Shown piece by piece: positions 1,373-29,260 of a stretch of 64,000 nucleotides of DNA. Below the pieces are notes generated by a model. The model ran no database searches, was not told where the DNA came from, and saw nothing but the letters and a program-made list of their open reading frames with translations. Numbering within the stretch: position 1 is the first letter of the stretch; the number at the start of each line of letters is the position of its first letter. Source of the DNA: Macrostomum lignano (taxonomy: Eukaryota); assembly GCA_002269645.1 (NCBI GenBank), contig NIVC01002121.1, positions 116,193 to 180,192 on the forward strand. Reading direction: 5' to 3'. Position numbers and translations under genes: made by a program.

Positions 1373-3727
1373 ATGGAGCCACTAGGCATGGATCAGCAGC
1401 TTGTTGAGCAGCCACTCCAGCAACAACGACCTCCGCTAATACCACCCCGCCTACACAGGCGGCCAATAAACGATGAGATCAGGCCTCTGCCGCCTCTGCC
1501 GCCTCTGGCGGATCTTCAAGAACCTGTAGCAGACACTCGCAGTATCCAATCTGCGCGGCCTGAGAGTGGGACAGTTTGGCAGCGTGTCTGCCGAATCCTG
1601 ACGACCTGTCGCTTCATTGGCGGCAGGAGCAATCATCAAAGAGATTATCGAAGGGCCAACGAGTCTGAGATTAGTCTGCAAAATTTTGAAAGAAGCGGCA
1701 GGTTCGCGTACCAGATTAGCCGCCAAAGTGGACACTACCCCTGTATGTTTGACATCAAACAGATTAAACAGGTAAAGATTTCTTGCTGCCTTGAATTCTA
1801 CCTCTACTCCAGATCGCCCGTCTGACCTGCCTGTCCTGTCTGTCCTGTCTGTCCTACTTGTCTGCCTGTCCTGTCTGTCCTACTTGTCTGTCTGTCCTGT
1901 CTGTCCTGCCTGTCCTACTTGTCTGTCTGTCCTGTCTGTCCTGCCTGTCCTACTTGTCTGTCTGTCCTGTCTGTCCTGCCTGTCCTGTCTGTCCTACTTG
2001 TCTGCCTGTCCTGTCTGTCCTACTTGTCTGTCTGTCCTGCCTGTCCTGTCTGTCCTACTTGTCTGTCTGTCCTGCCTGTCTGTCTGTCCTGCCTGTCCTG
2101 TCTGTCCTACTTGTCTGTCTGTCCTGTCTGTCCTACTTGTCTGTCTGTCTTGTCCTGTCTGTCCTGTCTGCCGGTATGCCTGTTCCCAAGTGCAACATAA
2201 GGGGGTTGTAGCCTAGTGGTTAGAGCGTCAGACTGACGAATTGAAGCCTTCAAGGTCGAGGGTTCGATTCTCGACCCACTCGCAAACGTTTGTGTCATTG
2301 AGCAAGACACTTCACTCTGCATTGCTTCAGTCCATTCAGCTATAAAGTGGGTACCAGCATCAGCTGGGGTAATTGAGGCTGTGTGTGGCGACCACCCAGT
2401 CCTTGGACTGAACAGCCGTACGCAGCCTTCAGATGCGCCGCGCAATAGCTGCGGCTGAGCTGTCGGTTGCACATCTGGTCCGATTGGGGCAGGTTTGATC
2501 TGTTTTTATATTATTATTATTATTAACTGCAAAACTCCCAGATGAAATCGCTCCCGTCCCCACAGATGCCGTGGTACTTCGGTCCCCTGAATAGCGCCGA
2601 TGTGACTAGAATTTTGGCCGGCCGACCCAATGGATCGTTTATTGTGCGAGAATCGCCCTATAATTTAAATGTTTTCTATCTATGCCTGCTTTATAATGGC
2701 TTAACATTTGACACCAAAATCGTTTGCGAGTCCAGTGAGTCATGAAAGTGGAAATCATTCTACTTGTATCAATAGCTTACAGTAGGGTGCAGTAGCCGTT
2801 GTACAGAATATATTAGTTCACCTGTACACTTGTAAGATTAGTTCACCTGTACACTTGTAAGATTAGTTCACCTGTACACTTGTCAGAGTAGCTCACCTGT
2901 ACACTTGTCAGAGTAGCTCACCTGTACACTTGTCAGAGTAGCTCACCTGTACACTTGTCAGATTAGCTCACCTGTACACTTGTCAGAGTAGCTCACCTGT
3001 ACACTTGTCAGAGTAGCTCACCTGTACACTTGTCAGAGTAGCTCACCTGTACACTTGTCAGAGTAGCTCACCTGTACACTTGTCAGAGTAGCTCACCTGT
3101 ACACTTGTCAGAGTAGCTCACCTGTACACTTGTCAGAGTAGCTCACCTGTACACTTGTCAGAGTAGCTCACCTGTACACTTGTCAGAGTAGCTCACCTGT
3201 ACACTTGTCAGAGTAGCTCACCTGTACACTTGTACCTGTATACTCAATAGTTGTGATTTAGTAGGTAGCATTTTTTTCCTTTTTACTAAAAAGAAATATT
3301 CTTTAATACAGGTGTCTTCCATCTCAGCTGGCGTGATATGAATATTCGGTCGCGCACGAATCTAACGGACCTTATTGATTACCTGGTTCGAGATTCCAGA
3401 AGCGTTAGATCCGCCAATACATGTAGCACCCGCTATTTATTGCCACAACCGACCGCTGATGACCCGTTAAAGCTGGCCCCGCTTAGCCGTAACTCTGTTT
3501 TACCATCGCTAAAACATCTGTGCCGTTTCGAGATCATGGCCCGCATTCGTGGCAGACAGCTTGGAGCCAGCGCAGCTGTCGGGTTGCTTCCGTTGCCAAA
3601 TTCTCTGCAGCAGTATCTGCTTGTAGAGCAGTACTTTGTTGAGAATGTGAGCCAGTTTGAGCTGCAGCCGCTACCGCAATCGCCAATCGCGCAGGATTTC
3701 CATCAAGTCGAGAGTTTCTACGAGTAG
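1373..3727 (+). CDS. SOCS-family protein (SH2 + SOCS box); join(1373..1771,2542..2734,3312..3727), ~335 aa
   Basis: Exon 2 WYFGPLNSADVTRILAGRPNGSFIVRES is an SH2 N-terminus; exon 3 LPSLKHLCRFEI...LPLPNSLQQYL is a SOCS box. GT-AG junctions keep frame (phases 0, 1). Start codon is tentative. Confidence 0.8.
1822..2170. repeat. Low-complexity (CCTGT/CTGT)n array in SOCS intron 1
   Basis: Degenerate 4-5-nt units; explains the spurious CLSCLS/CPVCP ORFs. Confidence 0.9.
2201..2460 (+). mobile_element. tRNA-derived SINE with CORE-like central domain (intact copy)
   Basis: Pol III A box TAGCCTAGTGG and B box GGTTCGATTCTC; central TGTGTCATTGAGCAAGACACTT...CAGCTATAAAGTGGG resembles the CORE domain. 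Related copies at 14308/23444 and 29102. Confidence 0.8.
2813..3237. repeat. 25-bp minisatellite (AGCTCACCTGTACACTTGTCAGAGT), ~17 copies, SOCS intron 2
   Basis: Head-to-tail near-identical units, no spacers. Confidence 0.95.
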
Positions 3728-4639
3728 AAGAGTAACCAGACAGACATGCGCAACATCTAAAATTACACCGGTCATGCGACCTGGTTTTGACTGAAAATGC
3801 AACTTAGTTTTGCGACTTACCTGAAAGTTTTTTTTTAAATTTTTCAAGCAAAGTATAAAATTACAATATTTGGGGAGTGACATTGTCAGGTTAGTGGGTG
3901 AGTGACAATATTATTCTAGGGGAGTGACATTGCCAGGTTAGTGAGTGAGTGACAATATTCTAAGGGTAGTGACGTTAAGTCATCTATTCTCGTATTACAA
4001 TGCGATGGCATTTTCAACGGCCAATTTCAACTATATGGTGCGTATTTAAACGCTAGAACATTTTCTAATCTCTTCCGTATATGAACCGAAAACTTCGCAT
4101 TTTAAAGCGTTAATCTTTTAAAACTATTCCCTGTGCATTCTATAATACAATCTGCTATTTTACTATTATTTTTACTATTTGCTACTCCAGGTTGGTTAAT
4201 TACCATGCTTAATCCTCATTACAGTCCGAAATCCGTTTAGATTTCAGATATGTCTACTCCAGATTTATAGAGTTCTGTGCTTTATCCTTGATACATTTTT
4301 ATCTTTAACACAAGTCTGAGTGACACCGAGTTACACAACACCATTGATCAAATGTCGTTTTTTAGCTGCATATAATTCATCAATATAGGAGCAAATTAAA
4401 AAGTAAATTTCACATCATTTCATTTCTGTATGTTTCTGGTATTGCGTTCTGTATAATCCGTCATTTTTTATAATATTTCTACTACAAAGCAAGTATAAAT
4501 ACAAAAAAATCGTTCATTTTTGTTTTTTAAATAGTTTTCACCCTCGTCTTCTATTCTTTTAGCTAACTGTACAGTAAAGGGTGGACAGATAGATAGTAGG
4601 TAGAAGACAGGTAAACTCACAAACAGATAAGTAAATAGA

Positions 4640-5758
<1,119 letters not shown>

Positions 5759-5987
5759 CTGATATTCATAAACAGACATAGCATTTATACATATTAAGAA
5801 AGCAGGCAATTAGAAATCATTGTATAAATTAGTGCCATCTCCAACCTCATTTAACTTTTATGCATGTTTACTAACTATAACCGCGTAAAGGCTGTCGAAA
5901 TTCGACCGATTCTATCGAAACAATTATCAAAAGTACATTCGCACCCGCCATTAGCTACTAACTAACAGTCCAGTAGTATAGAGAAGA

Positions 5988-8900
5988 ATGCTGCAGATAA
6001 AAGCGCTGTTCTATCTGACTATGCTGGCACTCAGTCTTGTCCAGCTTGTCAGCTCAGACGAGCACAACCACGTGTACGAGGAGGGCGAAGAGGTCGTACT
6101 GTGGATGAACACCGTCGGCCCCTACCACAATAGACAGGAGACTTACACTTATTTTTCCCTGCCATTCTGCCGCGGTCCCAAGCAGGACATTGCCCATTAC
6201 CACGAGACGCTTGGCGAAGCTTTGCAAGGCGTTGAATTGGAATTGTCCGGCTTAGACATCGACTTCAACGTGCCGGTGAAGCGGACCACCTATTGCGAGG
6301 TGACGCTGTCCGAGGAGAAGGCCGAAGCGTTCATATACGCCGTTAAAAATCACTATTGGTACCAGATGTACATTGACGACCTGCCAATCTGGGGTATTGT
6401 TGGCGAAATTAGCAAAGACGATCCGCCGCAGTTCTATCTGTGGACGCACAAGAAATTAGATATTGGCGTCAATGCCAAACAGATTGTTGATGTTAATCTC
6501 ACTAGCGACTCTAAAGTGCTGATTAAACCTGGCGCCAAGGTTACCTTCTCTTACGAGGTCACGTTTAAACCTTCGAAGGTGCAATTTGCCGACCGGTTTG
6601 ATAAGTATCTGGACCCGAGCTTCTTCCAACACCGGATTCATTGGTTCTCGATCTTCAATTCGTTTATGATGGTTGTATTCCTTGTTGGCCTGGTGTCCAT
6701 GATCCTGATGCGAACTCTGCGCAAAGACTACGATCGCTACAATAAGGCCGACGATGTGGACGATTTGGAGCGGGATCTCGGAGATGAGTACGGCTGGAAG
6801 CAGGTCAGGAGCAGCTACATGTAGTTATCTCAGTGTGTGTTGGGCTTGGGCTGTCGTTGACGGATATAGAAGGAAGAAAAATCTGGAAGCAATTATGATC
6901 AGAGTTAACTAAGTAACTTCAGAGCAAATAAGATTATAAAATATTTTTCCATTCAATGGCATGAGCAAACGGATTTAGTAAACTTGATTGATGTTATCTA
7001 ATGAGCAATCCAGTCAGTGCCCTTTTATTCGTTAATTAGCAGCTATAAATTTTGTTTTTGCGGCTTATACTCGTAGCTTGCAGTGTCGCTTAAGTGGCGT
7101 AAGGCGAGTACGAAATGTCGCAAAACACCGTCAGACAAGCAATGACCGACGCTAAAATTCAGAATCGGGGTTGGGCTAAAGCAGGGGTCTCCAACCCACT
7201 GTTAGCAGCGGGCCGCATTCAATATTTATTTAAGATACGCGGGCCGCAAAAAGTGCACAAAAGTTAAGAAAAATTTAGTCAAAGTCAAGATATAGCATTA
7301 GTCTACTACAAAATGACACCTTTCCCTACAAAACTACACCTTTCCCAACAAAATGACACCTTTCCCTACAAAATGACACCTTTCCCAACAAAATGACACC
7401 TTTCCCTACAAAATGACACCTTTCCCTACAAAATGACACCTTTCCCTACAAAATGACACCTTTCCCTACAAAATGACACCTTTCCCTACAAAACTACACC
7501 TTTCCCAACAAAATGACACCTTTCCCTACAAAATGACACCTTTCCCTACAAAATGACACCTTTCCCAACAAAATGACACCTTTCCCTACAAAATGACACC
7601 TTTCCCAACAAAATGACACCTTTCCCTACAAAATGACACCTTTCCCTGCAAAATGACACCTTTCCCTACAAAATGACACATTTCCCTACAAAATGACACC
7701 TTTCCCTACAAAATGACACCTTTCCCAACAAAATGACACCTTTCCCTACAAAATGACACCTTTCCCTACAAAATGACACCTTTCCCTACAAAATGACACC
7801 TTTCCCTACAAAATGACACCTTTCCCTACAAAATGACACCTTTCCCAACAAAATGACACCTTTCCCTACAAAATGACACCTTTCCCTGCAAAATGACACC
7901 TTTCCCTACAAAATGACACCTTTCCCTACAAAATGACACCTTTCCCTACAAAATGACACCTTTCCCTACAAAATGACACTTTAAGACTACTGACTGCTTG
8001 GATAGTTGAGGCAAAATTGATTAAATTGCATAAGTCAGTGTTGCGATTATCCGACAGCAATGATAACCACGTGAGTTGCGTGATACCGTTGCCTTGGCAA
8101 CAGAAAGATCTCCGACCGCGCATACTTTTCGCATCAATACTTGTCACAACCTTCGATATTTGATAGTGAATTTCCGGGATGGGGTGTTCAAAATGCTGCA
8201 AGTTACTTATATCATAGCAATTCAAGCAGTAGGGAGTATTACACGCCTACTTAACGGCGATCGTTAAATCTTGTTAACCGTAAGGCCGCATTTGTACATT
8301 GCCGAAATTGCCGATACAGTCATGGGTGCTCGCAGACAATCTTGCTCAACAGTTGTATTCAGAAATAGCTTTTGACTCTTATTGCGTGTACCGGTATGGG
8401 GGTAATTGAGCCAATAGATTCTCACAGCGTGTCAAAAATTGTTTATAACCCCCCTCCCAGGTGCACGGTGACGTGTTCCGCGCCCCAACCCAGCCGCTGC
8501 TATTCTCCGTCCTGATTGGCTCCGGCCTGCAGCTGGCCTGCGTCATTCTGGCCGTAGTCAGCCTGGCCATGCTAGTAGAGATGTACACCGAGCGGGGCAG
8601 CCTGCTGTCAGCCACTATCTTTGTGTACGCGGCCGCCAGCCCAGTTGGCGGATTCGTTGGCGGCGCCCTGTACGCCAGATCCGGCGGCAGGAAGTGGATC
8701 AAGCAGGCCGTGGTGCAGGCCTTGTTTATACCGGCTCTGCTCACCTCGGTGGCTCTGTCTGTCAATCTGATCGCTATCGGCTATCGGGCCTCGCGCAGCC
8801 TGCCAGTGCTGCACAGCATCGCCATGCTGGCAATCCTTGGCTTCGTCATCCTGCCGCTGAGCCTTGTTGGCACCGTGCTGGGCCGCAACCTGGCTGGCCA

Positions 8901-9926
8901 GCCCAACCTGCCCTGTCGGGTTCGTTTCGTCTGGGGTTTTAGCTGTTGCTATGGCAATGCATCGGATGTATCACTGTCGTATCAGCTGATCCCAATGTCC
9001 TGTGATCTCCTATCATGTCAGCAGATTCCCACCATGTCAGCTGATCCCAATGTCATGTCAGCCGATTCCCATCATGTCAGCTGATCCCCATCATGTCAGC
9101 CGATTCCCATTATGTCAGCCGATCCCCATCATGTCAGCTGATCCCCATCATGTCAGCCGATTCCCATCATGTCAGCTGATCCCCATCATGTCAGCCGATT
9201 CCCATCATGTCAGCTGATCCCCATCATGTCAGCTGATCCCCATCATGTCAGTTGATCCCCATCATGTCAGCCGATTCCCATTATGTCAGCTGATCCCAAT
9301 GTCATGTCAGCCGATTCCCATGTCAGCTGATCCCCATCATGTTAGCTGATCCCCATCATGTCAGTTGATCCCCATCATGTCAGCTGACTCCCATAATGTC
9401 AGTAGCTTATTACTATCTTATCAACCCATTACCCCATCCCCAGGTGAACGCGGTGCCCCGGCCCATACCTGAGAAGCGCTGGTTCATGGAGCCGCCAGTC
9501 ATCTGCCTGCTAGGCGGCCTGCTGCCCTTCGGCTCGATCTTCATCGAGATGTACTTCGTATTCACCTCGTTTTGGGCCTACAAAGTCTATTACGTGTTTG
9601 GCTTCAGTTTCCTGGTGTTCCTCATCCTGCTGTGCGTCACCGGCTGCGTCACGGTCGTGTGTGCCTACTTCCTATTGAACTCCGAGGACTACCGCTGGCA
9701 GTGGTGCTCCTTCCTCTCCGGAGCGTCCACCGCCCTCTATCTGTACATGTACGCCGTGTACTATTTCTTTTTCAAGACCAAAATGTACGGCCTGTTCCAG
9801 ACATCATTCTACTTTGGTTACATGGCCCTGTTCTGCGCCGCTTTGGCTCTGGTCTGCGGCGCTATCGGTTTTGTGGCTACTAGCTTGTTTGTCCGCAAGA
9901 TCTATTCTACAGTGAAGATTGACTGA
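5988..9926 (+). CDS. TM9SF3: Transmembrane 9 superfamily member 3; join(5988..6803,8461..8919,9444..9926), 585 aa
   Basis: Signal peptide, [51 protein letters not shown]|VHGDVFR, PCR|[11 protein letters not shown] and C-terminal [10 protein letters not shown]. All three exons join in phase 0 with GT-AG. Confidence 0.95.
7310..7980. repeat. 20-bp minisatellite (AAATGACACCTTTCCCTACA), ~33 copies, TM9SF3 intron 1
   Basis: Head-to-tail units. Confidence 0.95.
9010..9395. repeat. ~19-bp minisatellite (GCTGATCCCCATCATGTCA/GCCGATTCCCATCATGTCA), TM9SF3 intron 2
   Basis: Alternating variant units. Confidence 0.9.
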
Positions 9927-11930: not shown

Positions 11931-14307
11931 TGGTAATGCTTAAGCGTCATTTCGTTTACACCTGGTGCGGTGGAATTATCTGTTTTATAAATATAATTAA
12001 TTAAAAAGCACTCACAATGATTTTTGTCTGTTTTCTATATTGTGTAACTATTATCATTATTATGATTAGCTGTGTTTATCGGTCTTTTCATGCGTATTTC
12101 TTCATTTCGTCCCGATGGCTCTAAACAAAGTTTTTCCTATCGATTTGTCGTCGCCAACTTTTTTCTCTTTTCCTTTTCGTCCTCTTCGCTTCTTCTTTTG
12201 GTCTCTTGAATTTAAGTTAATTGGATGGTTTTTTGCTTTCTCTAATTCTCTTAGTAAGGTAATTATTATTCACTCTATTGTGTTTAGATGGGTGTTTTTG
12301 TTTTATTATTATTACTATTATATTTATAACTACTACTGTTAGTATGTATTTGATTATTCGGAGTCGCTAAGTAATTATACCTACACCCTGTGTGCAGCCC
12401 TCTACCATTTCAAACTTTTGTTTTACTTTTTAGCCTGTGTTATACTCTCTCACCATGTGCAAATGTGTGCTGATAAATAAAATAATATATGCAGAAATTA
12501 ATAATTTAGCTGCCCGCTTGCATTGGAATCTTCTTTTGGCTGACTTATACCGTATGTTTTTGAGTTCTCTTGAATCTTCTTGAATATCAGAGTGCCCTAG
12601 TGCGTCAGTGCGTCAGTGTTCTCTCCTTTGTCTCCTCTCTGCTTCATCTCTCATAGAAATTTCGCCTATTCAAATCCGGGCAGGCCGCAGGCAGTGGATG
12701 TCTCAGCTGGCGAGATCTAAAACTTAATAAGAAGAACGAAATTTTTTGCCTTTGTTTTTTCTTTACTTTTGATTTCGGTAGCAGATACCAGAATAACCGT
12801 GCTACATTGCAGTAGTCAAAGGCTGTGCTATCATCGGATCTGCGTCGGTGAGAGATAGTTCTTGGAAAGCCCGATCACAGAATCCAGGAAAACATTAAGA
12901 ATCGCCTGATACGAGAAGATTCTATGGTTCATCTCCGAGTATTAGGCGATATTTCTTTGTGCTCGGATGTAATCCACGGCCTGTGCGGCTCGAATAAAAT
13001 GCATTATTCTATGGCTTACCGAGTCTTTATGATTGTCCAAGGAACGCCATTTCTCCATTATTTCAGGCTTCCAGCGCGCGCTTCAACCATAGACAAAACA
13101 GTTTATTAAACAGAAGTGACGATAAATACACGGCGATTAATATACGCCGAAGACTCGAGGGCGCTAAGTAAATAGTGCCCGGAAAATAGCATGCTTTGTC
13201 TCATATAGAGCATGTACTCGTATACCTTAAACCACTTTAAAGCTCACTTTCAGGGAGGTTATTGACATAGATTTTATTTTGCGGGATTTAATCGATCACT
13301 TTCCCGGACATATTGCAAAGATTATTGTATGTATCTAAATAAGCGAGCTTCTCTCTTCTCTTCCTTCGTGACTCGAGAAATTTCTTAATGAAATTTTGTC
13401 TATGGTAAGATTGTGGGGGCTTCGCTTCGCCCCCACACCCCCATCCCCAACTTCAACCATAGACATACAAGTATGGATCCGGGATTTATCTGAATGCATC
13501 CCGCTAAATTAAAGTAGTTTAAATAAGATTCTATGGGTTTGAGGTCGGTATACAAAGGTAGACAAATGGTTGAAAAATTAAGCCCGCAACTTGACTAACT
13601 GCTTGGAATAGCGGGCAATATAAGGCTCACACCATGCTCTATGCAATTAAGAATACGTACATGTAAATATGAAATATGCGTATAACAGACACCGATATGA
13701 TCAGGAACAAACTATGCGTACATTGTGTGTTTTGAAACAAATTTTGATTAGAACGATGTGATTAAAGGGAGATTGGAATTCCCAGCATTGAGAGTTCCTA
13801 ATTCCTAGCATTTTTAGAAGACTGGGATTTCAAGCATTATTAGAAGATTGGGATTATAGGATTAAGCATCGACAAATAAATCATGTGCAAGCAGAAAGTG
13901 TCTCAAAAGAGAACAATTGTCACTCCGTCCAAATACGAAATGTCAATTCATCTGATATCAAAGCCTAACTTATTATAAATTAAAAGTACAATCAGCAAAG
14001 CTACAGGGTTGGCAAACATCGGCTCACGCACTGCTGTACTCGCATCTCATTGTTGTTGCGTTAATGAAACGGCCGTTGTGCTTCCCGTGGCTCGTGAAGT
14101 CATAAATGAAGCACCAGTTCGCAAGTCCTCGCGAACGTCAGGAACCAGACTCTGTTTGATTCTAGTAGCGAGGTAAATTTTGTGTTCTTTTAGCACTGAG
14201 AGAATGGCTTGCTCTGTATCTACTATCCTGTTCTACTTCAACCCTCACGCATTATCGATTTTTTTGGCGGGACCAAATAGATACGAGACTCGTAGTTCTT
14301 GGCCTGC

Positions 14308-14488
14308 GGTTGTAGCCTAGTGGTAAGAGTGTCGGACTCACGAATGAAAGGACGGGGGTTCGATTCTCGACCAAATCGGAACAGTTGGTGTACTTGAACA
14401 AGAAACTTAACTCTGCATTGCTTCAGTTCACCCAGCTGTAAAATGGGTGCCAGCATTAGCTGGGGTATTTGAGGGTGTGTGTGGCGAC
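14308..14488 (+). mobile_element. tRNA-derived SINE, 5' half (disrupted by the Polinton-like element)
   Basis: Colinear with 2201-2390 up to GTGTGTGGCGAC. Confidence 0.85.
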
Positions 14489-14872
14489 AGTAGTAGGTAA
14501 AACGACGCCTACAGACCCAGAGCACTTTTTTAACAGCCGTTTTAAGGGTCTAGAGGGGGGACACGGGGGTAAATAAAAAAACACATCTAAACACCCTTAA
14601 CACATCTAATCACCCTTAATCACCCATAAACACCCATAATCACCCACATTACCAAAAAAGCAATATAACCCATCCCCAACCCATCTTATCAGCCCCCCTC
14701 GTGTCCCCCCTCTGGAACCTTATAAACGGCCATTAAAAAAGGTCTGATCTGTAAGCGTCGTTTTACCTACTACTACACATCCAACACCCCCCAACACTTC
14801 TAACACTTCCAAATCTCTATAACCCCTCGCACGCGCCGCAGGCGCGAAGGGTCTTTTTCTGTTACTAAAAAT
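14489..14872 (+). repeat. Left terminal inverted repeat (384 bp)
   Basis: Reverse complement of 23061-23443; three differences seen by eye (one G-run indel, two substitutions). Confidence 0.95.
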
Positions 14873-15185
14873 GACCCGAGTTTACACCTTTTCTGTTAGT
14901 GATACTTTTGAGACTGTTGCTAAAAATGCAGAGATAATAAAACAACATATTTTGAATGGAATAATTGATGAAGTTTATTTGAAGTATGACGACAAGCACG
15001 ACCTAAAACTTTATCCATTAGAGTTGGATGAGATGTATGATTTAGAACAAGAGGGTGAGTTAATATTTCAACTTGGAGATTATTTAAATTCGGATGATTG
15101 GGAGGTTCGTTCAGATGATTCCAACTCAACAAATAGCTCATATGAAACTAGTGATTCTGAGAATGAAATTGAAATTTTTATGTAA
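14871..15185 (+). CDS. Element ORF: acidic hypothetical protein, 104 aa
   Basis: ATG at the TIR boundary in AAAAATG context; D/E/S-rich C-terminus; no family recognised. Confidence 0.6.
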   Translation: MTRVYTFSVSDTFETVAKNAEIIKQHILNGIIDEVYLKYDDKHDLKLYPLELDEMYDLEQEGELIFQLGDYLNSDDWEVRSDDSNSTNSSYETSDSENEIEIFM

Positions 15186-15188
15186 AAA

Positions 15189-15443
15189 ATGAACTATTAC
15201 TCTATAACAGAAACGACATTTATTGTGAAAAATATATATAAAAAAATGAAGGTAAATCGAACCCTAGGTTCGCGTGCTATGCACGATTACTCCTACATCG
15301 GAAATGTTCCAATTAATGAACTTAATGAAAATTTAAGTCTAATCACTGTTGAACAAATGTCAATAATTATATTAGTAACAATAATAGTAATAATATTGTT
15401 TTTGTTTGTTATAAAAAATTTACTACCATGTTGTCTCAAGTAA
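15189..15443 (+). CDS. Element ORF: small protein with C-terminal transmembrane helix, <=84 aa
   Basis: Hydrophobic IIILVTIIVIILFLFVI followed by KNLLPCCLK; AAAAAATG starts at 15189 and ~15246. Confidence 0.55.
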   Translation: MNYYSITETTFIVKNIYKKMKVNRTLGSRAMHDYSYIGNVPINELNENLSLITVEQMSIIILVTIIVIILFLFVIKNLLPCCLK

Positions 15444-15453
15444 TTGTTCGAAC

Positions 15454-17087
15454 TTAGTTCGCTGATATTAGTTGGTTCTCATAAAACGAACCCAATATTT
15501 CTTCACCATCCTTATCAGCAATTATATAGGTTGTAGGATTGGTATTTAAAACTTTACTGATAGTAAATATCTCACTTATTTTCCAATATCCTTTTCTTCC
15601 TTTTTCAAACTTATCTTTCCATTTATAGATATAAACAGAATCACCAACCTTAAAAGATTTCTTTTTATTTTTTTCAAATTCTCTAAAAGTAACTTTAACA
15701 TTTTCAGGATTGCTATAAGCTTGTTGAGGAGTCATCTTTATCGTACGAAATCCGCGTTCCGAAGGAACGATAGCCGAATGATATGAATTATTATAATCTT
15801 TCACGACGTCTGGTAATATTTTTACCCACTTTTGGTTTCCATTAAGACTAAACTGAAACCACAATTTCTTACCTAAAGTTCGATTAAATCTTTCAATTAA
15901 TGCGTTTTTGCTTTCTCCATAAATAGAATAAATTTTATTAATATACTCCCCATTCGCGTCCTTCATCCTTTCTTTTCCTTTTTCAAAATGATATAATTTA
16001 TACATATGAGGATTGTAAAATTCTTTTCCTTCATCAACACATAGCCGCTCACTTTTTTCTCCAAGACTTCTAAAAGCAGCAGCAACCTCCTCACCTTTTT
16101 TGGATTTCAAAGGAACAGCCCACGCGTATCGAGTAAAACCATCTAGTATGGTTAAGATATATTTATATCCTCTTTCATTTGGCATCGACATTAAATCAGC
16201 ATACCAAATTTCGTTCTTTTTGAAGTTCATGATTTTTCTATAAAATTTAGGTTTTCGATATTCTTTATGAAGAATCTTTGCCTCATCAGAACTTAACCCA
16301 CTGCCACTTAATAATAAACACTCAACACAATTATTTCCATGTTGATTGTAATTAATTCCCAAACCAAATTTAACTTTAGATTGCAGAATCTTTTTAATCA
16401 TCCACCTAGTTAATCTTTGGCCTATTGACAATCCTTGTAAATTATCCAATCCTTCAATCATTTTTCTATCGGCTTCATGTTTTAATCTTAATGCTTCCTC
16501 GGGTGAGTTCTTATCAGCATCTCTGTATGCTAAGTCATGATAGTATGCTAACCAATCAATACCATTAATGGGAATTGAATCAGCTTTTGGAGTATCATCA
16601 GGATTTAATCGGAGATCGAGTCGAGTCAACCCGGCCTTTATACCTTTGCTTTCACAAAGGAGTAGACTGTGTCTTAAGCTATCATAAGGATTGACTAAGT
16701 CCTTCAAGCCCACCAGCGTACAGTCGTTGCATCTCAACCATACTCAAGTCATACGAGGTTAGGTTTTCGATTCACTCTTGTCCATATATATCTTCAAGCT
16801 TGTTACCGTTGGGAACAGGAGTTACCTGTGTTCCTTCAGAAGATTTCTCAACTGAAGTGGTACTTGAAGCTTTAGGAGATTGAGTGAGCGGCTGGTGTTG
16901 CCACTAATAGTGACTAGCAGTAGGTTTGCTTCTACCACTCGGGCACAGCTCGAGCTCCACCCGTGAAATTATACGACGGCAGGTGTAATTCATTTGTATA
17001 CCTTCCAGTAGTAAAAACGCTTGGTAAGCTTGTTAATCCTTTTTGTAAGTCTAAAAATCCTCCTTCAAATACTAATTGATTGCTCAT
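15454..17087 (-). CDS. PLA2 (parvovirus/adintovirus-type)-retroviral-like integrase fusion; join(17087..16959,16635..15454), ~436 aa after removal of the group I intron
   Basis: Exon 1 ends ELHLPSYNFTG; exon 2 continues AGLTRLDLRL...PINGIDWLAYYHDLAY...HEAD (PLA2 HD/D catalytic motif). The DDE core follows (WYADL, CVDEGKEF, IERFNRTL), then a Polinton-type C-terminus (GDSVYI...FTISKV...PTTY..GEEILGSFYENQL). Confidence 0.85.
16636..16958 (-). ncRNA. Group I self-splicing intron, 323 nt, no internal endonuclease ORF
   Basis: Minus strand: P1 exon CGGGU with GCCCG (16940-16944; U-G pair at the 5' splice site); P3 CACCAGC/GCUGGUG (16891-97/16711-17); P4 UCACUC/GAGUGA (16882-87/16772-77) with AA in J4/5; P6 AUC/GAU; P7 A(C)GACUG/CAGUCU (16721-25/16665-69) in the S motif AAGACACAGUCU; P9 CCUUUGU-GAAA-GCAAAGG (16643-60); terminal G. 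Excision restores the reading frame. The exact 3' G could differ by a few nt. Confidence 0.88.
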
Positions 17088-17685
17088 TTTTAATAGCCTT
17101 AAAAATACACGATAGCACCAATTGTTTTGCAAATTCATCAATGGTTGGTTGTTTATCATTTTTTGAAATATTATCTACAGCAACTAAGTATCTTTTATTT
17201 CTCCAATTTTCAGACTTTTTAATTTGTTCATCATCGCGATAATCATATGAAGAAGCAGGAATAAAATGATCAATATGTAAAGCACCACAATAGTCTTTTG
17301 GGACGTAATAATGTTTTGTGAAATTTAACCAATCAGTAAAGAATTCAATTGAGCAACCAAGGTAATCAATAGTATGATTATTTTTTCGAGTATTATTAGA
17401 TTTTAGAAGAGAATTTATTCTACATCTGGTGTTTTTTTTATTTCTAAAATTTTCATCAGTTAATCTTCTTTCATTTTCATATTTTCTGCGGCTTTCTATA
17501 TTATTTTTATCGTATTCTTTTTTCCATTGAAGCTTATATTCACGATTTTTCTCATACCATTCTTTATCATACTTTCTCTCACAAGGTTTGCAAATACTAT
17601 AATATCTATTTTGATCTCTACGAAATCTAAACTCAAACAAAAATTTCTCATCTTTACACTTAGTACAAATCTTTTTAGTTTCCAT
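17065..17685 (-). CDS. HNH homing-type endonuclease of the giant-virus-like family with N-terminal CxxC...CxxC Zn finger, 206 aa
   Basis: CTKCKDEK...ICKPC; DYLGCSIEFF; HIDHFIP...N..YL...DNISKNDK (HNH core). Confidence 0.75.
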   Translation of the reverse strand: METKKICTKCKDEKFLFEFRFRRDQNRYYSICKPCERKYDKEWYEKNREYKLQWKKEYDKNNIESRRKYENERRLTDENFRNKKNTRCRINSLLKSNNTRKNNHTIDYLGCSIEFFTDWLNFTKHYYVPKDYCGALHIDHFIPASSYDYRDDEQIKKSENWRNKRYLVAVDNISKNDKQPTIDEFAKQLVLSCIFKAIKNEQSISI

Positions 17686-17708
17686 TTTATAAAAAATAAA
17701 TTTAACAA

Positions 17709-18380
17709 TTAAACACCGGTATGTCCAGCAGCTTTCGCAGCAGCTAAAACAAGTTTTCGTGGAGTTTTAAATCCTTCTCCAACAGCCGGTTTGTTATTTA
17801 TAGAATCAACAATCCTTTTATATAAACTTGTATTCTTAGCAGCTCTTACTCCTAACTCATCATAAAAATTTTTAGCACTTACTAATTCATCTCTAGTGTA
17901 TAAATCGGGGTTAAATTTTACCCTAGGGTTCATAACAATATTATATGCTCCACCCAATTCTCTATATAGCTCATTCTGATTTTTATTAACCCCACCAATT
18001 CGATAATTATTATTATCTAAATCTGTCACAGCAATACTAGTTGGTGCAGGTCTCGGATATTCATCAACTCCACCCCTTTCTGCAGCCCTAATTTCTGCAA
18101 CTCTCAATAGTGCTTGAGCAACATCATAAGTAGGCGGCTCATCCAAAATTTCATCCTCTTTTGGCTCTGTATTCTTAGCAATTTTTTCCAGAAGGTCTTT
18201 ATCTGTTTTTTCTAGTTCACTAATTTTCCCCGTAATAGGATTAACAAAAGGAGCAGCAAATCTTTCACCAGCTAATTGTATTCCTAACTTTCTTTTTTGC
18301 AAATTTCTAACAAAATCAGAATATCTTTGCTTTTCTTTATAAATCGCTAACTCTCCATCAACGTCCATAAATTGACTCAT
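17709..18380 (-). CDS. Element ORF: Polinton-associated conserved hypothetical protein, 223 aa
   Basis: Clean ORF with AAAAATG start. C-terminal GEG...LAAAKAAGHTG resembles a conserved uncharacterised Maverick protein (recalled similarity, unverified). Confidence 0.6.
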   Translation of the reverse strand: MSQFMDVDGELAIYKEKQRYSDFVRNLQKRKLGIQLAGERFAAPFVNPITGKISELEKTDKDLLEKIAKNTEPKEDEILDEPPTYDVAQALLRVAEIRAAERGGVDEYPRPAPTSIAVTDLDNNNYRIGGVNKNQNELYRELGGAYNIVMNPRVKFNPDLYTRDELVSAKNFYDELGVRAAKNTSLYKRIVDSINNKPAVGEGFKTPRKLVLAAAKAAGHTGV

Positions 18381-18413
18381 TTTTTAACATAAAAAACTTT
18401 TTTAACTTAAAAA

Positions 18414-19886
18414 ATGGCTGAAACAAAAACTATGTGGAGTGATAAATTTCATTTCAAAAAGCACCGCCAGTATATTAATGAAGTCAGAGCAAGAGATTTA
18501 AATTTTACCCTACCAACAAGTGATAATTCAAATAACTTTACAACCGGAACGGTAACTTTTGACATCGGCGCAACCAACACTATATTGGATATGAAAAATG
18601 CGTTTTTCCGTGTTAGATGGTTGTATACTAGAAATGATGGAACTGCTCTTGCAGCCGGCGATATCGCAGATCGTTCTGGTATTATAATAGAAAATGATTG
18701 GTTTTATAAATGTTTTTCCCAAGCCCAACTGTCAGTTAATGGAGCCGAGGTTGAGACAGCATCAAACCCCGCAGAGATTAATGGAGTTTTGAAACATTTA
18801 AATTATACTTATTTATCAAAACAAGTTGGTGATAATGTTGGGTGGATGCCTGATAAGGGTAATGGTCAAGCAGTAGTTTTCCCTAATGTACAAAACGCAG
18901 CTGGTGCAGATACCGCAGCTCTTATAGCTTATCTTAATACCAATATAGTTCCAGTTGTAACCACTATGACTAATACAAAAGAGATTAATACAGGTTTTAT
19001 AGATCGTCAGAATAAATTCCCAGTCGCGGTTTTAACCACAGCAACAGCATATGAGCAAGACTTTTCAATCTTTCCGCTATTTGGGTTCTTCTCACCAAAT
19101 CGGGTATGGAAAGGATTAAAATTTGGGATACAATTGCAAATATCTGGTGGATATCAGCCTAGGATACTTTATGGAACCTCAATTTCAACCGATATAGCAG
19201 TTCGTATAGATTCAATTCAATTAGTCGTACCAACTATTGAGGTAACAGCCCCACTTTTAAAACACATTGATAATCAGTTAACGCATGATCAGGAAATATT
19301 TTATTTGAATCGTCGACATTTTATGCGAACCATTAATAATAACCAGGATTCATTCCAGTGGCAGATAATTACATCAAAACGTCGGGTGAGATATATTTTT
19401 GTTTGGTTTAAAATAACAAACAGAAGGAGTAAAAGAACAAATGGGGATTTATATTGGCTTCAATCCGGTGCCATAGCAGCACAAGCAGCTACTGCAACAG
19501 ACAATGCGGCTGCAGCTATTAACGAGTTTAATGTTCAGAACATCCGCCTGCAGGTTGATGATCAATATTATCCGGTTAAAGACCCCCTTAATCTAAACAT
19601 AGCAAATAATAATGTTAATGATTTTATAAAATATTATCAAGATTATGTCAAAAATGAAGCGTTTGCCGTCCCTCAGTACACACCCACAGAGTTTCTAAAC
19701 ATTCATCCAGTGGTTGTTTATGATCTAACGGCACAGAAAGAAAACGTAGCCAATGTTGGACTTAATTACATGTTAGAGATTAATAAAACCGGTAATCAGG
19801 CAATCGACGCCCACGTATTGTTTCTAGAGGAATATATGTCAATTGCTAAAGCTGATGGCACGATTGTTCGGGACGCGCCAATTTAG
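18414..19886 (+). CDS. Major capsid protein (predicted double jelly roll), 490 aa
   Basis: Size, beta-rich pattern, motifs FDIG..TILD..NAF, FSQAQLSVNGAEVE, QYYP...LNL and PVVVYDLT.Q.E typical of Polinton MCPs; lies directly upstream of the ATPase and penton. Confidence 0.8.
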   Translation: MAETKTMWSDKFHFKKHRQYINEVRARDLNFTLPTSDNSNNFTTGTVTFDIGATNTILDMKNAFFRVRWLYTRNDGTALAAGDIADRSGIIIENDWFYKCFSQAQLSVNGAEVETASNPAEINGVLKHLNYTYLSKQVGDNVGWMPDKGNGQAVVFPNVQNAAGADTAALIAYLNTNIVPVVTTMTNTKEINTGFIDRQNKFPVAVLTTATAYEQDFSIFPLFGFFSPNRVWKGLKFGIQLQISGGYQPRILYGTSISTDIAVRIDSIQLVVPTIEVTAPLLKHIDNQLTHDQEIFYLNRRHFMRTINNNQDSFQWQIITSKRRVRYIFVWFKITNRRSKRTNGDLYWLQSGAIAAQAATATDNAAAAINEFNVQNIRLQVDDQYYPVKDPLNLNIANNNVNDFIKYYQDYVKNEAFAVPQYTPTEFLNIHPVVVYDLTAQKENVANVGLNYMLEINKTGNQAIDAHVLFLEEYMSIAKADGTIVRDAPI

Positions 19887-19944
19887 TGTCGCAGGTCTCC
19901 GACCATCGCCCCGCTGTAAAATTAGTTAAATTATTTCTTTAAAA

Positions 19945-20729
19945 ATGGTAAAGGCAAAACACGATAAGATATTTCCAAATGATCCTTTTCTTTGTTTAGT
20001 AATTGGTGGGTCGGGTAAAGGAAAAACACACTTTGTTTACGATTTATTAACAACAGATGGAATGCTAGACTATAATAATTTAATAATTTATACTAACAAA
20101 CCTAGAATAAAATATTATGAATTTCTTAAACATGGTTTAAAAAACAAATTAAAAAAAGATATCTTGTTTAGAATGTTAAGAGCATATGAGCAATATGAGG
20201 ACGATGATGAACCAAGATTTACACTCGATGACATTGAGGATTTATGTAAAACAACAGCAAAAGAACCGGAAAACACCACCGATCGCCCCGAAGGGTCGCG
20301 GACTTCGTCCGATCGAGCCCCAACTGTTAGAGTATCAACCCGATTATCCTATGATCAAATTCCAAAACATGATAAAACACTAATTATTTTTGATGATTGT
20401 ATTAATGATGGTGATCAAGAATTGCAAAAGGAAATTTTTGTTAGTGGTAGAGGAGATGGAATTGGAGCTTTTTATCTTACTCAATCCTTTAGAGAATTAG
20501 AATCGATTATAAAAAAGAATGCTAGCTGTTGTGTAATGTTTGATTTAGATAACTATGATTTACAAAATATACACGCTAGATTTAATCCTGGGTTGGATGC
20601 AAAACCATTCAAAAGTATGTGTAAAAAATTTGGGATGATAGTCAATACAAACATATATATATCAACCCTAGGTTAGAAAGGAAAAATCGAATCTTAAAAG
20701 ATCTGATAAAAGAAGACGATGAGGAGTGA
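19945..20729 (+). CDS. A32/FtsK-HerA packaging ATPase; 1-nt frameshift near 20625 (ORF track ends 20676, shifted frame ends 20729)
   Basis: Walker A GGSGKGKT, Walker B LIIFDD, arginine-finger motif GRGDGI...LTQSF. The shifted frame from 20631 reads WDDSQYKHIYINP...EE*, fitting the usual C..W...Y..I.I tail. Confidence 0.88.
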
Positions 20730-20775
20730 TCGTTCCTTCGGAACGCGGACTTCGTCCGATTCTCCCACTATAAAA

Positions 20776-21561
20776 ATGGCTACAAATTTAGATACTATAA
20801 AACAATTGGTAGATCGAACTAATTCAAAATTTAGTACAACCTTACAGTTTATAATGACAACCAGTGAACAACGCATTCAATTGCGCGATCCATTACAACT
20901 CGATCAAAGCCTAAGTTATCAAATAGGTTTGATACTATTTTCAGTTTTTAACATGCCTCAATTAATTAATGCAACAAATAATCAATTTAGATATTCTAAA
21001 GATTCAGGAGCCAATTGGACAACATTTAGCGTTAATCCAGGAGCGTATTCCTATACCGATTTGAATGCTTATATAGAAGGAGAATTAACAGCTAATGGAG
21101 ATTGGGTATCAGGCGCAATTGTTATAGGGGTTGATTTACCATCTGGCAGATTCACACTATCACTCGAATCCGGATATCAGGTTGATTTCACAATTGCAAA
21201 TTCACTCAGAACCATACTTGGATTTAATTCCCGAATAGTTACCACATCAAGCACCGGCGATACAGTGGGAAATATTGAGGGTGGAGTTAATACAATTAAT
21301 ATAACAACCGATATATCAAACGGTGGTTATATAACAGACGATAATGGAGTTTTGGTTCAACGTGGAATTATTTATTCCATCCCATTTCTTGCTGTTCCAA
21401 TTGGAGAGAAAATGATTGTTTCACCCCAAACCCCAATATATTATCCTTTAAATCAATATAGTGTTCAATCAATTTATATTAGGATTGTAGATGAAAGCGA
21501 TAGATTAATAAGTTTTGGTGGGCAGTCAATAACAATAATTTTACGGATAAAACAGGTTTGA
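20776..21561 (+). CDS. Minor capsid (penton-like, single jelly roll) protein, ~261 aa
   Basis: Start MATNLD in TAAAAATG context; L.DPLQL...YQIGL..F, NNQFRY...W...NPGAYSYTDLN and YYPL..YSVQSIYIRIVDE..RLISF pattern of Polinton minor capsid proteins. Confidence 0.72.
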   Translation: MATNLDTIKQLVDRTNSKFSTTLQFIMTTSEQRIQLRDPLQLDQSLSYQIGLILFSVFNMPQLINATNNQFRYSKDSGANWTTFSVNPGAYSYTDLNAYIEGELTANGDWVSGAIVIGVDLPSGRFTLSLESGYQVDFTIANSLRTILGFNSRIVTTSSTGDTVGNIEGGVNTINITTDISNGGYITDDNGVLVQRGIIYSIPFLAVPIGEKMIVSPQTPIYYPLNQYSVQSIYIRIVDESDRLISFGGQSITIILRIKQV

Positions 21562-21605
21562 CCGAACCGAAGGTTCGAGGACATCGTCCGTTTCCTATAG
21601 TAAAA

Positions 21606-21779
21606 ATGGGTAACAATAATAGTTTAAAAAAACAATCAGATAAAGTTCAAAACGCAAAGGATAATTATGAAATCGAACTAACAAAATTGAAACAATTACA
21701 AGCAGAAAAAATCCGAAAGGAACTATTAAAATCCAAACCTACGAAACTAACTAAAACCAAGAGTTTTTCAGGAACATAA
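21606..21779 (+). CDS. Small basic protein with N-myristoylation consensus (MGNNNS), 57 aa
   Basis: TAAAAATG start; Gly2/Ser6; Lys-rich coiled segment. Confidence 0.55.
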   Translation: MGNNNSLKKQSDKVQNAKDNYEIELTKLKQLQAEKIRKELLKSKPTKLTKTKSFSGT

Positions 21780-21780
21780 A

Positions 21781-22020
21781 ATGGTAATAACTTGGGGCGA
21801 CTTCAAACAAAGATATGGAACTGACACAACAAGCAATATTGAATTAACAAATTGGGCGCGGCAGTTAAAAATAAAACCATTCAGATGTGTTATGCGAGAT
21901 GAGATCAAAGACTTACCACAATATGGATCTTTCATTGTTAATATTGAAACAACAAAAGAAAATGGTGTTCAGTGCTATCGTGTATTTTTAAGGCTATTAA
22001 AAATATTAAAAAAAAAATAA
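21781..22020 (+). pseudogene. Truncated adenain-like cysteine (maturation) protease
   Basis: TSNIEL..W...L.IKPFRCVMRDE..DLP...FIVNIETTKENGV matches the N-terminal half of Polinton proteases up to the expected catalytic His (G-x-H-W). At that point the sequence switches to a 33-nt copy of 17086-17118 and stops. Confidence 0.72.
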
Positions 22021-22629
22021 TATAAAAACATTACTACTATTAATGGTATCAATAAGTTTCTGTTTGAATTGTGCGTCCTGTGTTATTTGCTGTCTTTGAA
22101 ATTCTGCATCTCGTTTAGCTTTTTCATCCGCAGCTTTTTTATCATTTACTGCTTTTGTGATTCCAGCTGCGCCCCCTGCTATTCCACCAGCTGCTCCTAT
22201 TCCTGCAAAAATTATTGGTAATAAAGTTGCTAATGGCAATATTCCTCCTTGTTTTGCTTTTAATTCTGCTAACTGTTTTCGGTTATCATGAATTCTTTTA
22301 CCTGCTAAACCGGCTGCTCCGGCTGCTCCGAGGCCTAAAAGAATTGGTAAAATAGGTAACAACCCACCGTCTTTTTTAGTGTGAGTCTCCAATAAAAATT
22401 TTACATCAGAGTCTGTCAACCTATAATTTCTACCATGATACTTAAAGGATATTGGCCTTCCTTCTTGTGCATATTTTGCAGCAAGTTTAAATGTATCGAT
22501 ATCGTAGTCAAGTTTTTTACCTAAACGATCCAATTTTTTTAACATTGTGTGGCTATGTTTATTATCATCTAGATCTAAAGTATCTACAATTTCTCCTATA
22601 AAATATAAGCGGTCGTTATCTGTGTCCAT
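22006..22629 (-). CDS. Membrane-active core/cement-like virion protein with two GG-LP...GAAGG hydrophobic repeats, 207 aa
   Basis: KKDGG-LLPILPILLGLGAAG and AKQGG-ILPLATLLPIIFAGIGAAGGIAGGAAGITKAVNDKK, a motif typical of Polinton/adintovirus core proteins. Confidence 0.65.
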   Translation of the reverse strand: MDTDNDRLYFIGEIVDTLDLDDNKHSHTMLKKLDRLGKKLDYDIDTFKLAAKYAQEGRPISFKYHGRNYRLTDSDVKFLLETHTKKDGGLLPILPILLGLGAAGAAGLAGKRIHDNRKQLAELKAKQGGILPLATLLPIIFAGIGAAGGIAGGAAGITKAVNDKKAADEKAKRDAEFQRQQITQDAQFKQKLIDTINSSNVFILFFF

Positions 22630-22639
22630 TTTTATATTG

Positions 22640-23050
22640 TTAAAATTTCTTTAATCCTTTTCCGCCTTTAATTGTGGTTAACATTTTATTAAAATCCTGA
22701 ATATCTTTATTACTTATTGGCGCGCTTTTCGTGGGGGTTTCTGTTGGTTGTGCGGCTTGAGTTGTTTCCTGCGCTAGTTTCAAATCTTTTATTGCTTTTA
22801 TTTGTGAGAGGGTGTCGTTAAATTCTCTCAATTTCTTTAGTTCTTCTACTGCCCTCGCTGCTTCGATTCCGCCCTTTACAGCGTTTGTTATAGAACCTGC
22901 TGCAGAGCCTGCTTGGCCTATAAGACCCATATTGTCTTTAACGAAATTCGCTGCTGTACCAACCACATCAAAAAGACCCTCACCTCGGTATTCAACTGGG
23001 TCTCCCACCTGCAATTCGTTCAGATTTTGCATATGTGTAACGTGTGTCAT
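22640..23050 (-). CDS. Putative virion core protein with amphipathic helix, 136 aa
   Basis: RGEG-LFDVVGTAANFVKDNMG amphipathic segment; C-terminal KGGKGLKKF; AAAAAATG start next to the right TIR. Confidence 0.55.
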   Translation of the reverse strand: MTHVTHMQNLNELQVGDPVEYRGEGLFDVVGTAANFVKDNMGLIGQAGSAAGSITNAVKGGIEAARAVEELKKLREFNDTLSQIKAIKDLKLAQETTQAAQPTETPTKSAPISNKDIQDFNKMLTTIKGGKGLKKF

Positions 23051-23060
23051 TTTTTGTTCT

Positions 23061-23443
23061 ATTTTTAGTAACAGAAAAAGACCCTTCGCGCCTGCGGCGC
23101 GTGCGAGGGGTTATAGAGAATTGGAAGTGTTAGAAGTGTTGGGGGGTGTTGGATGTGTAGTAGTAGGTAAAACGACGCCTACAGATCAGACCTTTTTTAA
23201 TGGCCGTTTATAAGGTTCCAGAGGGGGGACACGAGGGGGGCTGATAAGATGGGTTGGGGATGGGTTATATTGCTTTTTTGGTAATGTGGGTGATTATGGG
23301 TGTTTATGGGTGATTAAGGGTGATTAGATGTGTTAAGGGTGTTTAGATGTGTTTTTTTATTTACCCCCGTGTCCCCCTCTAGACCCTTAAAACGGCTGTT
23401 AAAAAAGTGCTCTGGGTCTGTAGGCGTCGTTTTACCTACTACT
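23061..23443 (-). repeat. Right terminal inverted repeat (383 bp)
   Basis: Reverse complement of 14489-14872. Confidence 0.95.
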
Positions 23444-23513
23444 GGCGACCCCCCAGTCCTTGGACTGAACAGCCGTGCGCAGCCTTCAGATGCGCCGCGC
23501 AATAGCTGCGGCT
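23444..23513 (+). mobile_element. tRNA-derived SINE, 3' half
   Basis: GGCGACCCCCCAGTCCTTGGACTGAACAGCCG..GCAGCCTTCAGATGCGCCGCGCAATAGCTGCGGCT matches ~2385-2456. Confidence 0.88.
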
Positions 23514-29101: not shown

Positions 29102-29260
29102 AGGGGTGTAGCCAGTGGTTAGAGCGAACTCACGACTAAAAGGTCGGGGGTTCGATTCTCGACCAAATCGGAACAATTTGTGTCCTTGAGCAAGACACTT
29201 AGTAAAATTCGTGGCAGCATTAGCTGGGGTAATTGTGTGGCGACTCCCCCCCCAGAGCAG
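29102..29260 (+). mobile_element. tRNA-derived SINE, internally deleted copy
   Basis: GGGGTGTAGCCAGTGGTTAGAGCG...GGTTCGATTCTCGACC...TTGAGCAAGACACTT...GCATTAGCTGGGGTAATTG..GTGGCGAC. Confidence 0.75.

Follow-up and report, generated by a model that had tools for sequence, protein, structure and literature searches.

Does a free-standing endonuclease work together with a neighbouring group I intron in an integrated, virus-like element? The question is raised by a 64-kb stretch of DNA, analysed here as a whole and referred to as the window, in which a first-pass annotation had described an HNH endonuclease gene beside a group I intron and had proposed collaborative homing. The model for how mobile group I introns originate, according to which a free-standing nuclease directed at the insertion site enters the intron, rests on a few phage cases. 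Both states of that model appear to be represented here for one nuclease subfamily and one intron lineage.

A group I intron without an ORF in a PLA2-integrase gene

The nuclease gene, the intron and the interrupted gene comprise the following features.

17065..17685, (-) strand: free-standing HNH-type (His-Me finger) endonuclease, open ORF of 206 aa
16959..17087, (-) strand: exon 1 of the PLA2-integrase gene, 43 codons, ending in the U of the 5′ splice site
16636..16958, (-) strand: ORF-less group I intron, IC-type with P5abc, 323-324 nt (last base 16636 or 16635)
16940..16963, (-) strand: P1 helix (16963-16958/16945-16940) with a U.G pair at the 5′ splice site
16711..16897, (-) strand: intron core with P3 (16897-16891/16717-16711), P4 (16887-16882/16777-16772), P5, P5a-c (16869-16792) and P6
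16643..16725, (-) strand: 3′ part of the intron with P7 (16725-16720/16670-16665), P8 and P9 (16660-16643, GAAA loop)
15454..16635, (-) strand: exon 2, encoding the rest of a parvovirus-VP1-like PLA2 and an rve integrase, 393 open codons from 16635

The intron matched Rfam family RF00028 at 16643-16960 on the (-) strand (model positions 1-253; 41.6 bits, E 4.1e-9 in a search of 801 nt). An Rfam scan of the whole window missed it because 41.6 bits is below the gathering score of 50. The marks of a group I intron were present, namely the U.G pair in P1, the P3-P9 core and a terminal G. P1, P2, P3, P4, P5a, P5b, P5c, P7 and P9 all pair with zero mismatches, and P2.1, P6 and P8 fold as hairpins; the folding z-score of the intron as a whole was modest (-2.4). 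IC1 introns are marked by P2, P2.1, P5abc with an A-rich bulge and an extended P9 region. In this intron P2, P2.1 and P5a-c are present, P9.1/P9.2 are absent and P9 is short. Comparison of the intron with phage genomes gave no match. An E-value Rfam scan of the whole element (9.1 kb) returned no matches, and because the known intron was missed as well, that scan leaves room for a second one. Upstream, an Rfam search of 17000-18450 (1.45 kb) gave no match.

Several claims of the first-pass annotation held. As it had stated, the HNH ORF lies outside the intron: its stop lies 107 nt upstream of where the intron begins (16958) on the same strand, and the ORF overlaps the PLA2 ATG (17087) by 23 nt. 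A larger intron that would contain the HNH ORF was rejected, as exon 1 is conserved and P1 forms at the end of exon 1. The longest ATG-started frame within the intron is 19 codons, so the intron holds no nuclease of its own, again as annotated. The claim that it sits in a conserved motif was likewise borne out, since exon 1 is identical to the intron-less protein P0006 at 23/32 residues (72%) right up to the junction, which places the intron inside a conserved G-x-G motif. The designation of the interrupted gene as PLA2 proved incomplete: a PLA2 domain is present, fused to an rve integrase rather than standing alone. In exon 2, Pfam matched rve (E 1.6e-7) and Phospholip_A2_4 (E 0.022), and the fusion is a real family, as both domains occur in many of the 120 relatives listed, many of them full-length.

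P0006 is the closest PLA2-integrase relative (70% identical) and is intron-less at the protein level, so a target allele exists. Among the 120 relatives listed, 40 others also have an uninterrupted motif at the protein level. Homology of P0008 and P0029 ends exactly at the insertion site, whereas P0009, which is 70-73% identical to them, is continuous. These two proteins may represent a second intron-bearing allele; a short deletion would explain them as well, their N-termini gave no match to the window intron, and they were left out of the tally of evidence.

The last intron base had been given as 16636. This is still a candidate, although 16635 is equally a G, leaving an ambiguity of one base. 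With 16636 the frame stays open and the motif has five residues, compared with four in 41/41 relatives (those fitting both search patterns among the 120 matches listed); with 16635 the first two codons specify the commonest family residues and are followed by a stop. A 2-bp P9.0 favours 16635, as does the P10 offset known from Tetrahymena. A working site at 16636 is favoured by the continuous frame, by an exon 2 whose 393 codons are intact and by a P10 of 7/8 pairs, which a 5′ extension of P1 can form with the present exon 2. The 7/8 pairs of this guide fall at the start of exon 2 (16634-16625) and include bases that are off the family register, which hints that the departure from the register is old rather than a sequencing error.

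The upstream ORF encodes a predicted HNH-type endonuclease

The predicted nuclease combines a zinc ribbon (C7/C10/C32/C35), a long basic helix and a predicted catalytic region (D139-H140...N163...N172). We take the catalytic roles of D139, H140, N163 and N172 to be those of the HNH/His-Me finger family pattern, whose marks were present (a His with a preceding Asp, a central Asn and a second Asn). Among 28 aligned sequences H140 is invariant, and D139, N163 and N172 are each at least 90% conserved. Pfam HNH models did not match the nuclease; PHROG endonuclease families did, the best being phrog_1035 (E 1.8e-9). Its structure model had a pLDDT of 95.7. The best viral structure matches (BFVD) included mimivirus L246 (E 2e-11) and, at rank 3, an intron-encoded endonuclease of Bodo saltans virus (E 2.4e-10). 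Foldseek against the PDB gave no match at E<=0.001, with Cas9 HNH domains at the top ranks. VIA-align against solved structures gave weak similarity to PacI, BrxU and Hpy99I (Z 4.1-4.6), and a PDB sequence search found only the zinc ribbon of Hpy99I (E 0.33).

Membership in the DHHRN/Endo VII family of F-CphI was rejected, as I142 replaces the second His and the central N163 is present. DHHRN enzymes have a D-H-x-H motif and lack the central Asn, as described in the available part of PMC6083498; D-H-x-H occurs in 1/160 of the nuclease-family proteins.

The position of the gene is consistent with a reading in which the nuclease homes independently of the intron, cutting exon 1 or the upstream 223-aa gene, with the intron carried as a passenger in the conversion tract and the nuclease's own allele shielded by sequence divergence or by the nuclease insertion itself. 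The HNH ORF is wedged between two genes, with a 23-nt gap on one side and the 23-nt overlap on the other. Free-standing nucleases whose target is a conserved gene beside them are common, going by the accessible portions of PMC6083498 and PMC3984707. We return to the probability of this reading below, together with the relatives that bear on it.

The intron and nuclease gene lie in a young Polinton-like element

The surrounding element has these further features.

14490-23443: integrated Polinton-like element, 8.95 kb, inverted ends 99% identical, 6-bp target duplication
14490..14872, (.): terminal inverted repeat at the left end, with the target duplication GGCGAC just before it at 14484-14489
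17709..18380, (-) strand: ORF of 223 aa with no assigned function, its stop 23 nt upstream of the HNH start
18414..19886, (+) strand: putative major capsid protein, 490-aa ORF, inferred from size and position, no family match
19945..20676, (+) strand: A32-type packaging ATPase (Pfam Pox_A32, E 8.3e-7)
20719..21561, (+) strand: putative minor capsid protein, likely start 20777, no Pfam or PHROG family match
21781..22020, (+) strand: short ORF, likely a cysteine protease cut short (weak evidence, E 0.44 in a pairwise comparison with P0069)
22006..22629, (-) strand: protein X-like ORF (Pfam Adeno_PX, E 6.9e-5)
23061..23443, (.): terminal inverted repeat at the right end, 99% identical, with GGCGAC just after it at 23444-23449
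17086..17118: 33-nt repeat spanning the last HNH helix to the PLA2 start, with an exact inverted copy at 21972-22004

Inverted ends that are 99% identical and GGCGAC on both sides indicate that the element is a true and recent insertion. Polintons as a rule duplicate 6 bp of the target. The Polinton/Maverick features found were the terminal inverted repeats, the 6-bp target duplication, the rve integrase and the packaging ATPase. The ORF listing contained no polymerase gene; the longest ORF is 490 codons, and the interior between the inverted repeats has no free space. By its gene content the element is best described as Polinton-like, polymerase-less, young and non-autonomous, keeping capsid-module and integrase genes. 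Spread between co-resident Polinton copies had been suggested earlier; the window shows one copy only. The 23-nt gap between the stop of the 223-aa ORF and the HNH start leaves no room for a second ribozyme.

P0069, the relative of the short ORF at 21781..22020, has a Peptidase_C5 match, and homology of the short ORF ends at 21972, where the copy of the HNH 3′ end begins. The copy at 21972-22004 is the derived one, since the HNH tail at 17086-17118 is homologous to relatives. It is perhaps filler from a break repair that removed other genes too.

Other repeats and the surroundings of the element were also recorded. Double-hairpin repeats of about 33 nt with TTCG loops occur at 15255, 15740-15771, 20281, 20728 and 21560, and two of them are in frame inside genes, the ATPase and the integrase. 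The 10-residue insertion in the integrase is absent from 29 aligned relatives, and the relative P0023 carries a trace of the same repeat peptide at a different integrase position. This repeat family looks like a small mobile palindrome or a terminator. AAA stands immediately before the ATG at 11/11 listed ORF starts, one of which was picked for its context, and at 27/270 ATGs of the element with those 11 included. This arrangement resembles the late promoters of cytoplasmic large DNA viruses. It may point to a helper virus as the source of transcription, a situation in which a self-splicing intron would be favoured. The insertion point of the element is on the margin of a tRNA-like, dispersed repeat (14300-14489), an 88% identical copy of which lies at 29125 (29104-29235). 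ARAGORN found no tRNA. We take the repeat to resemble animal SINE cores. Flanking host genes (1373-9926 and 31028-33946) encode a SOCS-box protein, TM9SF/EMP70 and host cell factor (Kelch, fn3), and carry introns rich in tandem repeats; this set of genes suggests that the host may be an animal. Three Polinton-like units in 77 kb (L006, L011 and L036) were seen on contig CBDDCI010000002.1, which is labelled Mycoplasmatales; they are probably eukaryotic or viral contamination of the bin.

It is conceivable that the nuclease serves the element itself, by processing or packaging the genome or by interfering with a helper or co-infecting virus, and that its position next to an intron is incidental. 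The start of the nuclease gene shares the A-rich context of the element's other genes, and such roles have been proposed for HNH genes in Polinton-like and giant viruses in the portions of PMC12220804 and PMC5871332 at hand. The nuclease profile and intron blastn matched 0/39 distant Polinton-integrase loci (26-43% identical, from one genome scan with the PLA2-integrase alignment), loci whose distance and short length, many being short contigs, make them unsuitable for judging co-occurrence. Going by these loci, the nuclease is not a core gene. At the same loci the PLA2 profile matched 2/39, and an Rfam search of 20 of the 39 found nothing. Furthermore, the architecture of zinc ribbon, long helix and nuclease domain, the large and scattered family and the intron-fused relatives described below fit a mobile endonuclease. 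We therefore regard a role in the service of the element as very improbable.

Relatives of the nuclease read into a related intron

The nuclease belongs to a large family, with 12,341 representatives at E<=0.001 among 1.84 billion proteins searched. In the top match, P0126 (E 3e-38), the nuclease is followed by a tail that shares 64% identity (52 bits) over 36 residues with the translation of intron positions 16888-16781. In controls, the next best of 275 proteins reached 21.6 bits and the best of 200 shuffled introns 22.7 bits. When compared with the 64-kb window, the P0126 tail matched once only. Searches of phage genomes with the HNH protein and P0126 gave distant matches only, 23-37% identical in the best listed, none of which covered the intron tail.

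A search with residues 170-234 of P0126, a query biased toward HNH matches as it held about 15 residues of the HNH helix, returned 9/10 candidates (proteins of 128-410 residues). All nine of these tailed proteins match the window intron at 34-52 bits. Seven belong to the same HNH subfamily and two are an unrelated restriction-like nuclease; both nuclease types join the intron at the same point, a few codons 5′ of P3. The tailed ORFs, known as peptides alone, would appear to sit in the 5′ periphery of the intron. Peptide patterns for the intron P and Q elements matched 4 tails and 7 bodies among 155 proteins. P0162 and P0212 also appear to be intron-derived; they gave no match to the window intron. 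The two restriction-like nucleases, P0282 and P0283, have a weak Eco47II match (E 5e-4) and HinfI and ApaLI as Atlas neighbours. They are a possible new intron-encoded homing endonuclease of the PD-(D/E)xK type.

The nuclease tree contained 48 rows (31 subfamily matches, 16 chosen outgroups and the window nuclease). The seven tailed HNH proteins, which share 61-97% identity, form one clade (97/86) and are counted as one event. They fall with the window nuclease in the same 24-row group (83/94). With the full-length tailed proteins the window nuclease shares 39-43% identity, and it does not fall within their clade; it groups with the tail-less P0127 and P0132 (86/94), a placement without strong support. 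The sequences at hand thus show this HNH subfamily associated with this intron lineage in two ways, as neighbours and as fusions, and the link between the two families, being better than chance, suggests joint spread.

The majority of HNH subfamily members have no intron-like tail, which agrees with homing that is independent of the intron. That reading leaves unexplained why the closest-scoring relatives are fused to the same intron lineage, and we consider it unlikely. The relatives bear equally on a third reading, in which the intron lost its own nuclease, a related HNH gene settled nearby independently from a shared pool, and the two are not partners at present. At least two unrelated nuclease types occur in the intron lineage, which therefore exchanges nucleases; the window nuclease is not nested in the intron-fused clade; and turnover has been put forward by Barth et al. 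as another way in which such loci could originate, in the available part of PMC10448857. Against this reading, no ORF remnant was found in the 61 nt before P3, and both the ribozyme helices and the predicted catalytic residues are intact. We consider independent settlement distinctly less probable than homing that ignores the intron, and such turnover can still end as a working partnership.

Proposed partnership of nuclease and intron

The reading that we prefer, and to which we give about an even chance of being right, is that the nuclease is a homing endonuclease and the intron its partner. The enzyme would cut or nick PLA2-integrase alleles that lack the intron, at the insertion site or close to it, and the intron, by splitting the cut site, would shield its own allele. 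Repair templated by the protected copy would then give the cut copy both the intron and the nuclease gene that lies 107 nt away from it. Because it has no polymerase, the element would be expected to replicate only beside a helper element, and this helper would bring about the encounter with a second allele. The side-by-side and fused forms could represent both states described by the phage model, where a nuclease that is at first free-standing later enters an intron; the direction may have been either way.

A free-standing nuclease gene adjoins an ORF-less intron and intron-less cognate alleles exist, as in collaborative homing. Consistent with a partnership are also the short distance, the common strand, the start overlap, the intact predicted catalytic residues, the intact ribozyme helices and the structural similarity to the intron-encoded enzyme of Bodo saltans virus. 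The collaborative homing proposed in the first-pass annotation thus gained from the layout, from intron-less P0006 and from relatives that read into a related intron, and was weakened by the position of the nuclease outside the intron-fused clade. Two further points count against it. A shared gene pool alone could place both in one 9-kb genome, and a different host gene for the tailed introns would weaken the case for a shared target.

The model predicts that free-standing and intron-fused enzymes alike cut the intron-less junctions of their own host genes. If this is true, homing-based competition extends to small integrating eukaryotic viruses. If the host is an animal, the locus would also place a group I intron within a protein-coding gene of the nuclear genome of an animal, delivered by an integrating virus, and integrating viruses would be a route for group I introns into animal chromosomes. 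It is possible, with somewhat less than an even chance, that the locus is the first example of a collaborative-homing pair from a eukaryotic virus-like element, seen alongside the fused form, and that the same intron also captured a restriction-like nuclease.

Comparison with known systems

Collaborative homing has been described in phages, as set out in the accessible text of PMC6083498, PMC3984707 and PMC10448857. The cases are F-CphI and the psbA intron of cyanophage S-PM2, T3/T7-like phages, and the terminase intron and T5orf172 nuclease of ICP1. In contrast to these, the carrier here is an integrated eukaryotic Polinton-like element. Further differences are that the nuclease has no DHHRN motif, that the intron is of the IC type and that cleavage is a prediction here. 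For Polinton-like or pox viruses, collaborative homing is raised no further than as a hypothesis, for helicases and replicases, in the available portions of PMC11296320 and 10.64898/2026.10.13.758929.

Group I introns have been reported in Polinton-like viruses of Rhodomonas, Paulinella and Desmodesmus, those of Rhodomonas being 309-376 nt long (PMC12220804, available part). Ours is similar in size to the Rhodomonas introns and, like them, is a small group I intron carried by an endogenous Polinton-like element; the gene that they interrupt is short, unannotated and located upstream of the capsid gene, whereas here the PLA2-integrase gene is interrupted. The hosts in that study are protists, and its accessible text links no nuclease to the introns. 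In Bodo saltans virus, HNH-encoding parent introns are accompanied by ORF-less offspring that are thought to depend on trans-homing (accessible part of PMC5871332). The likeness extends to a eukaryotic DNA virus, a related nuclease fold and an ORF-less intron proposed to depend on an outside nuclease; the nuclease of that virus sits in another intron of the same gene, whereas ours is a free-standing gene, and the searches turned up no second intron.

The element shares with adintoviruses and animal Polintons the rve integrase, A32 ATPase, PLA2, protein-X-like gene and inverted ends, as given in the part of PMC8502044 at hand. It differs in having no polymerase and in the fusion partner of PLA2, which is the integrase here and protein X there (PLA2X). 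A group I intron and an HNH gene are present as well, and the available text of PMC8502044 mentions neither. According to the portions available, mirusvirus homing introns are spliceosomal (PMC12768974), and nematode Polintons have an HNH domain within the polymerase (PMC10748475).

Nuclear IC1 introns resemble the present lineage in being IC-type with P5abc and in having nuclease genes inserted in the 5′ periphery; in the accessible part of PMC3679873 they are confined to rRNA genes of microbial eukaryotes and encode His-Cys box enzymes. Unlike them, the present intron has a protein-coding host gene and a short P9 only. Animal group I introns are limited to placozoans, corals and sponges and are mostly mitochondrial in the text available from PMC11835236. 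A pair of free-standing nuclease and group I intron in a Polinton-like element was not found in the literature searched, which covered only a minority of subscription papers and of bioRxiv supplements. Earlier reports of group I introns in Polinton-like viruses exist, and it is the pairing with a free-standing nuclease that would be new.
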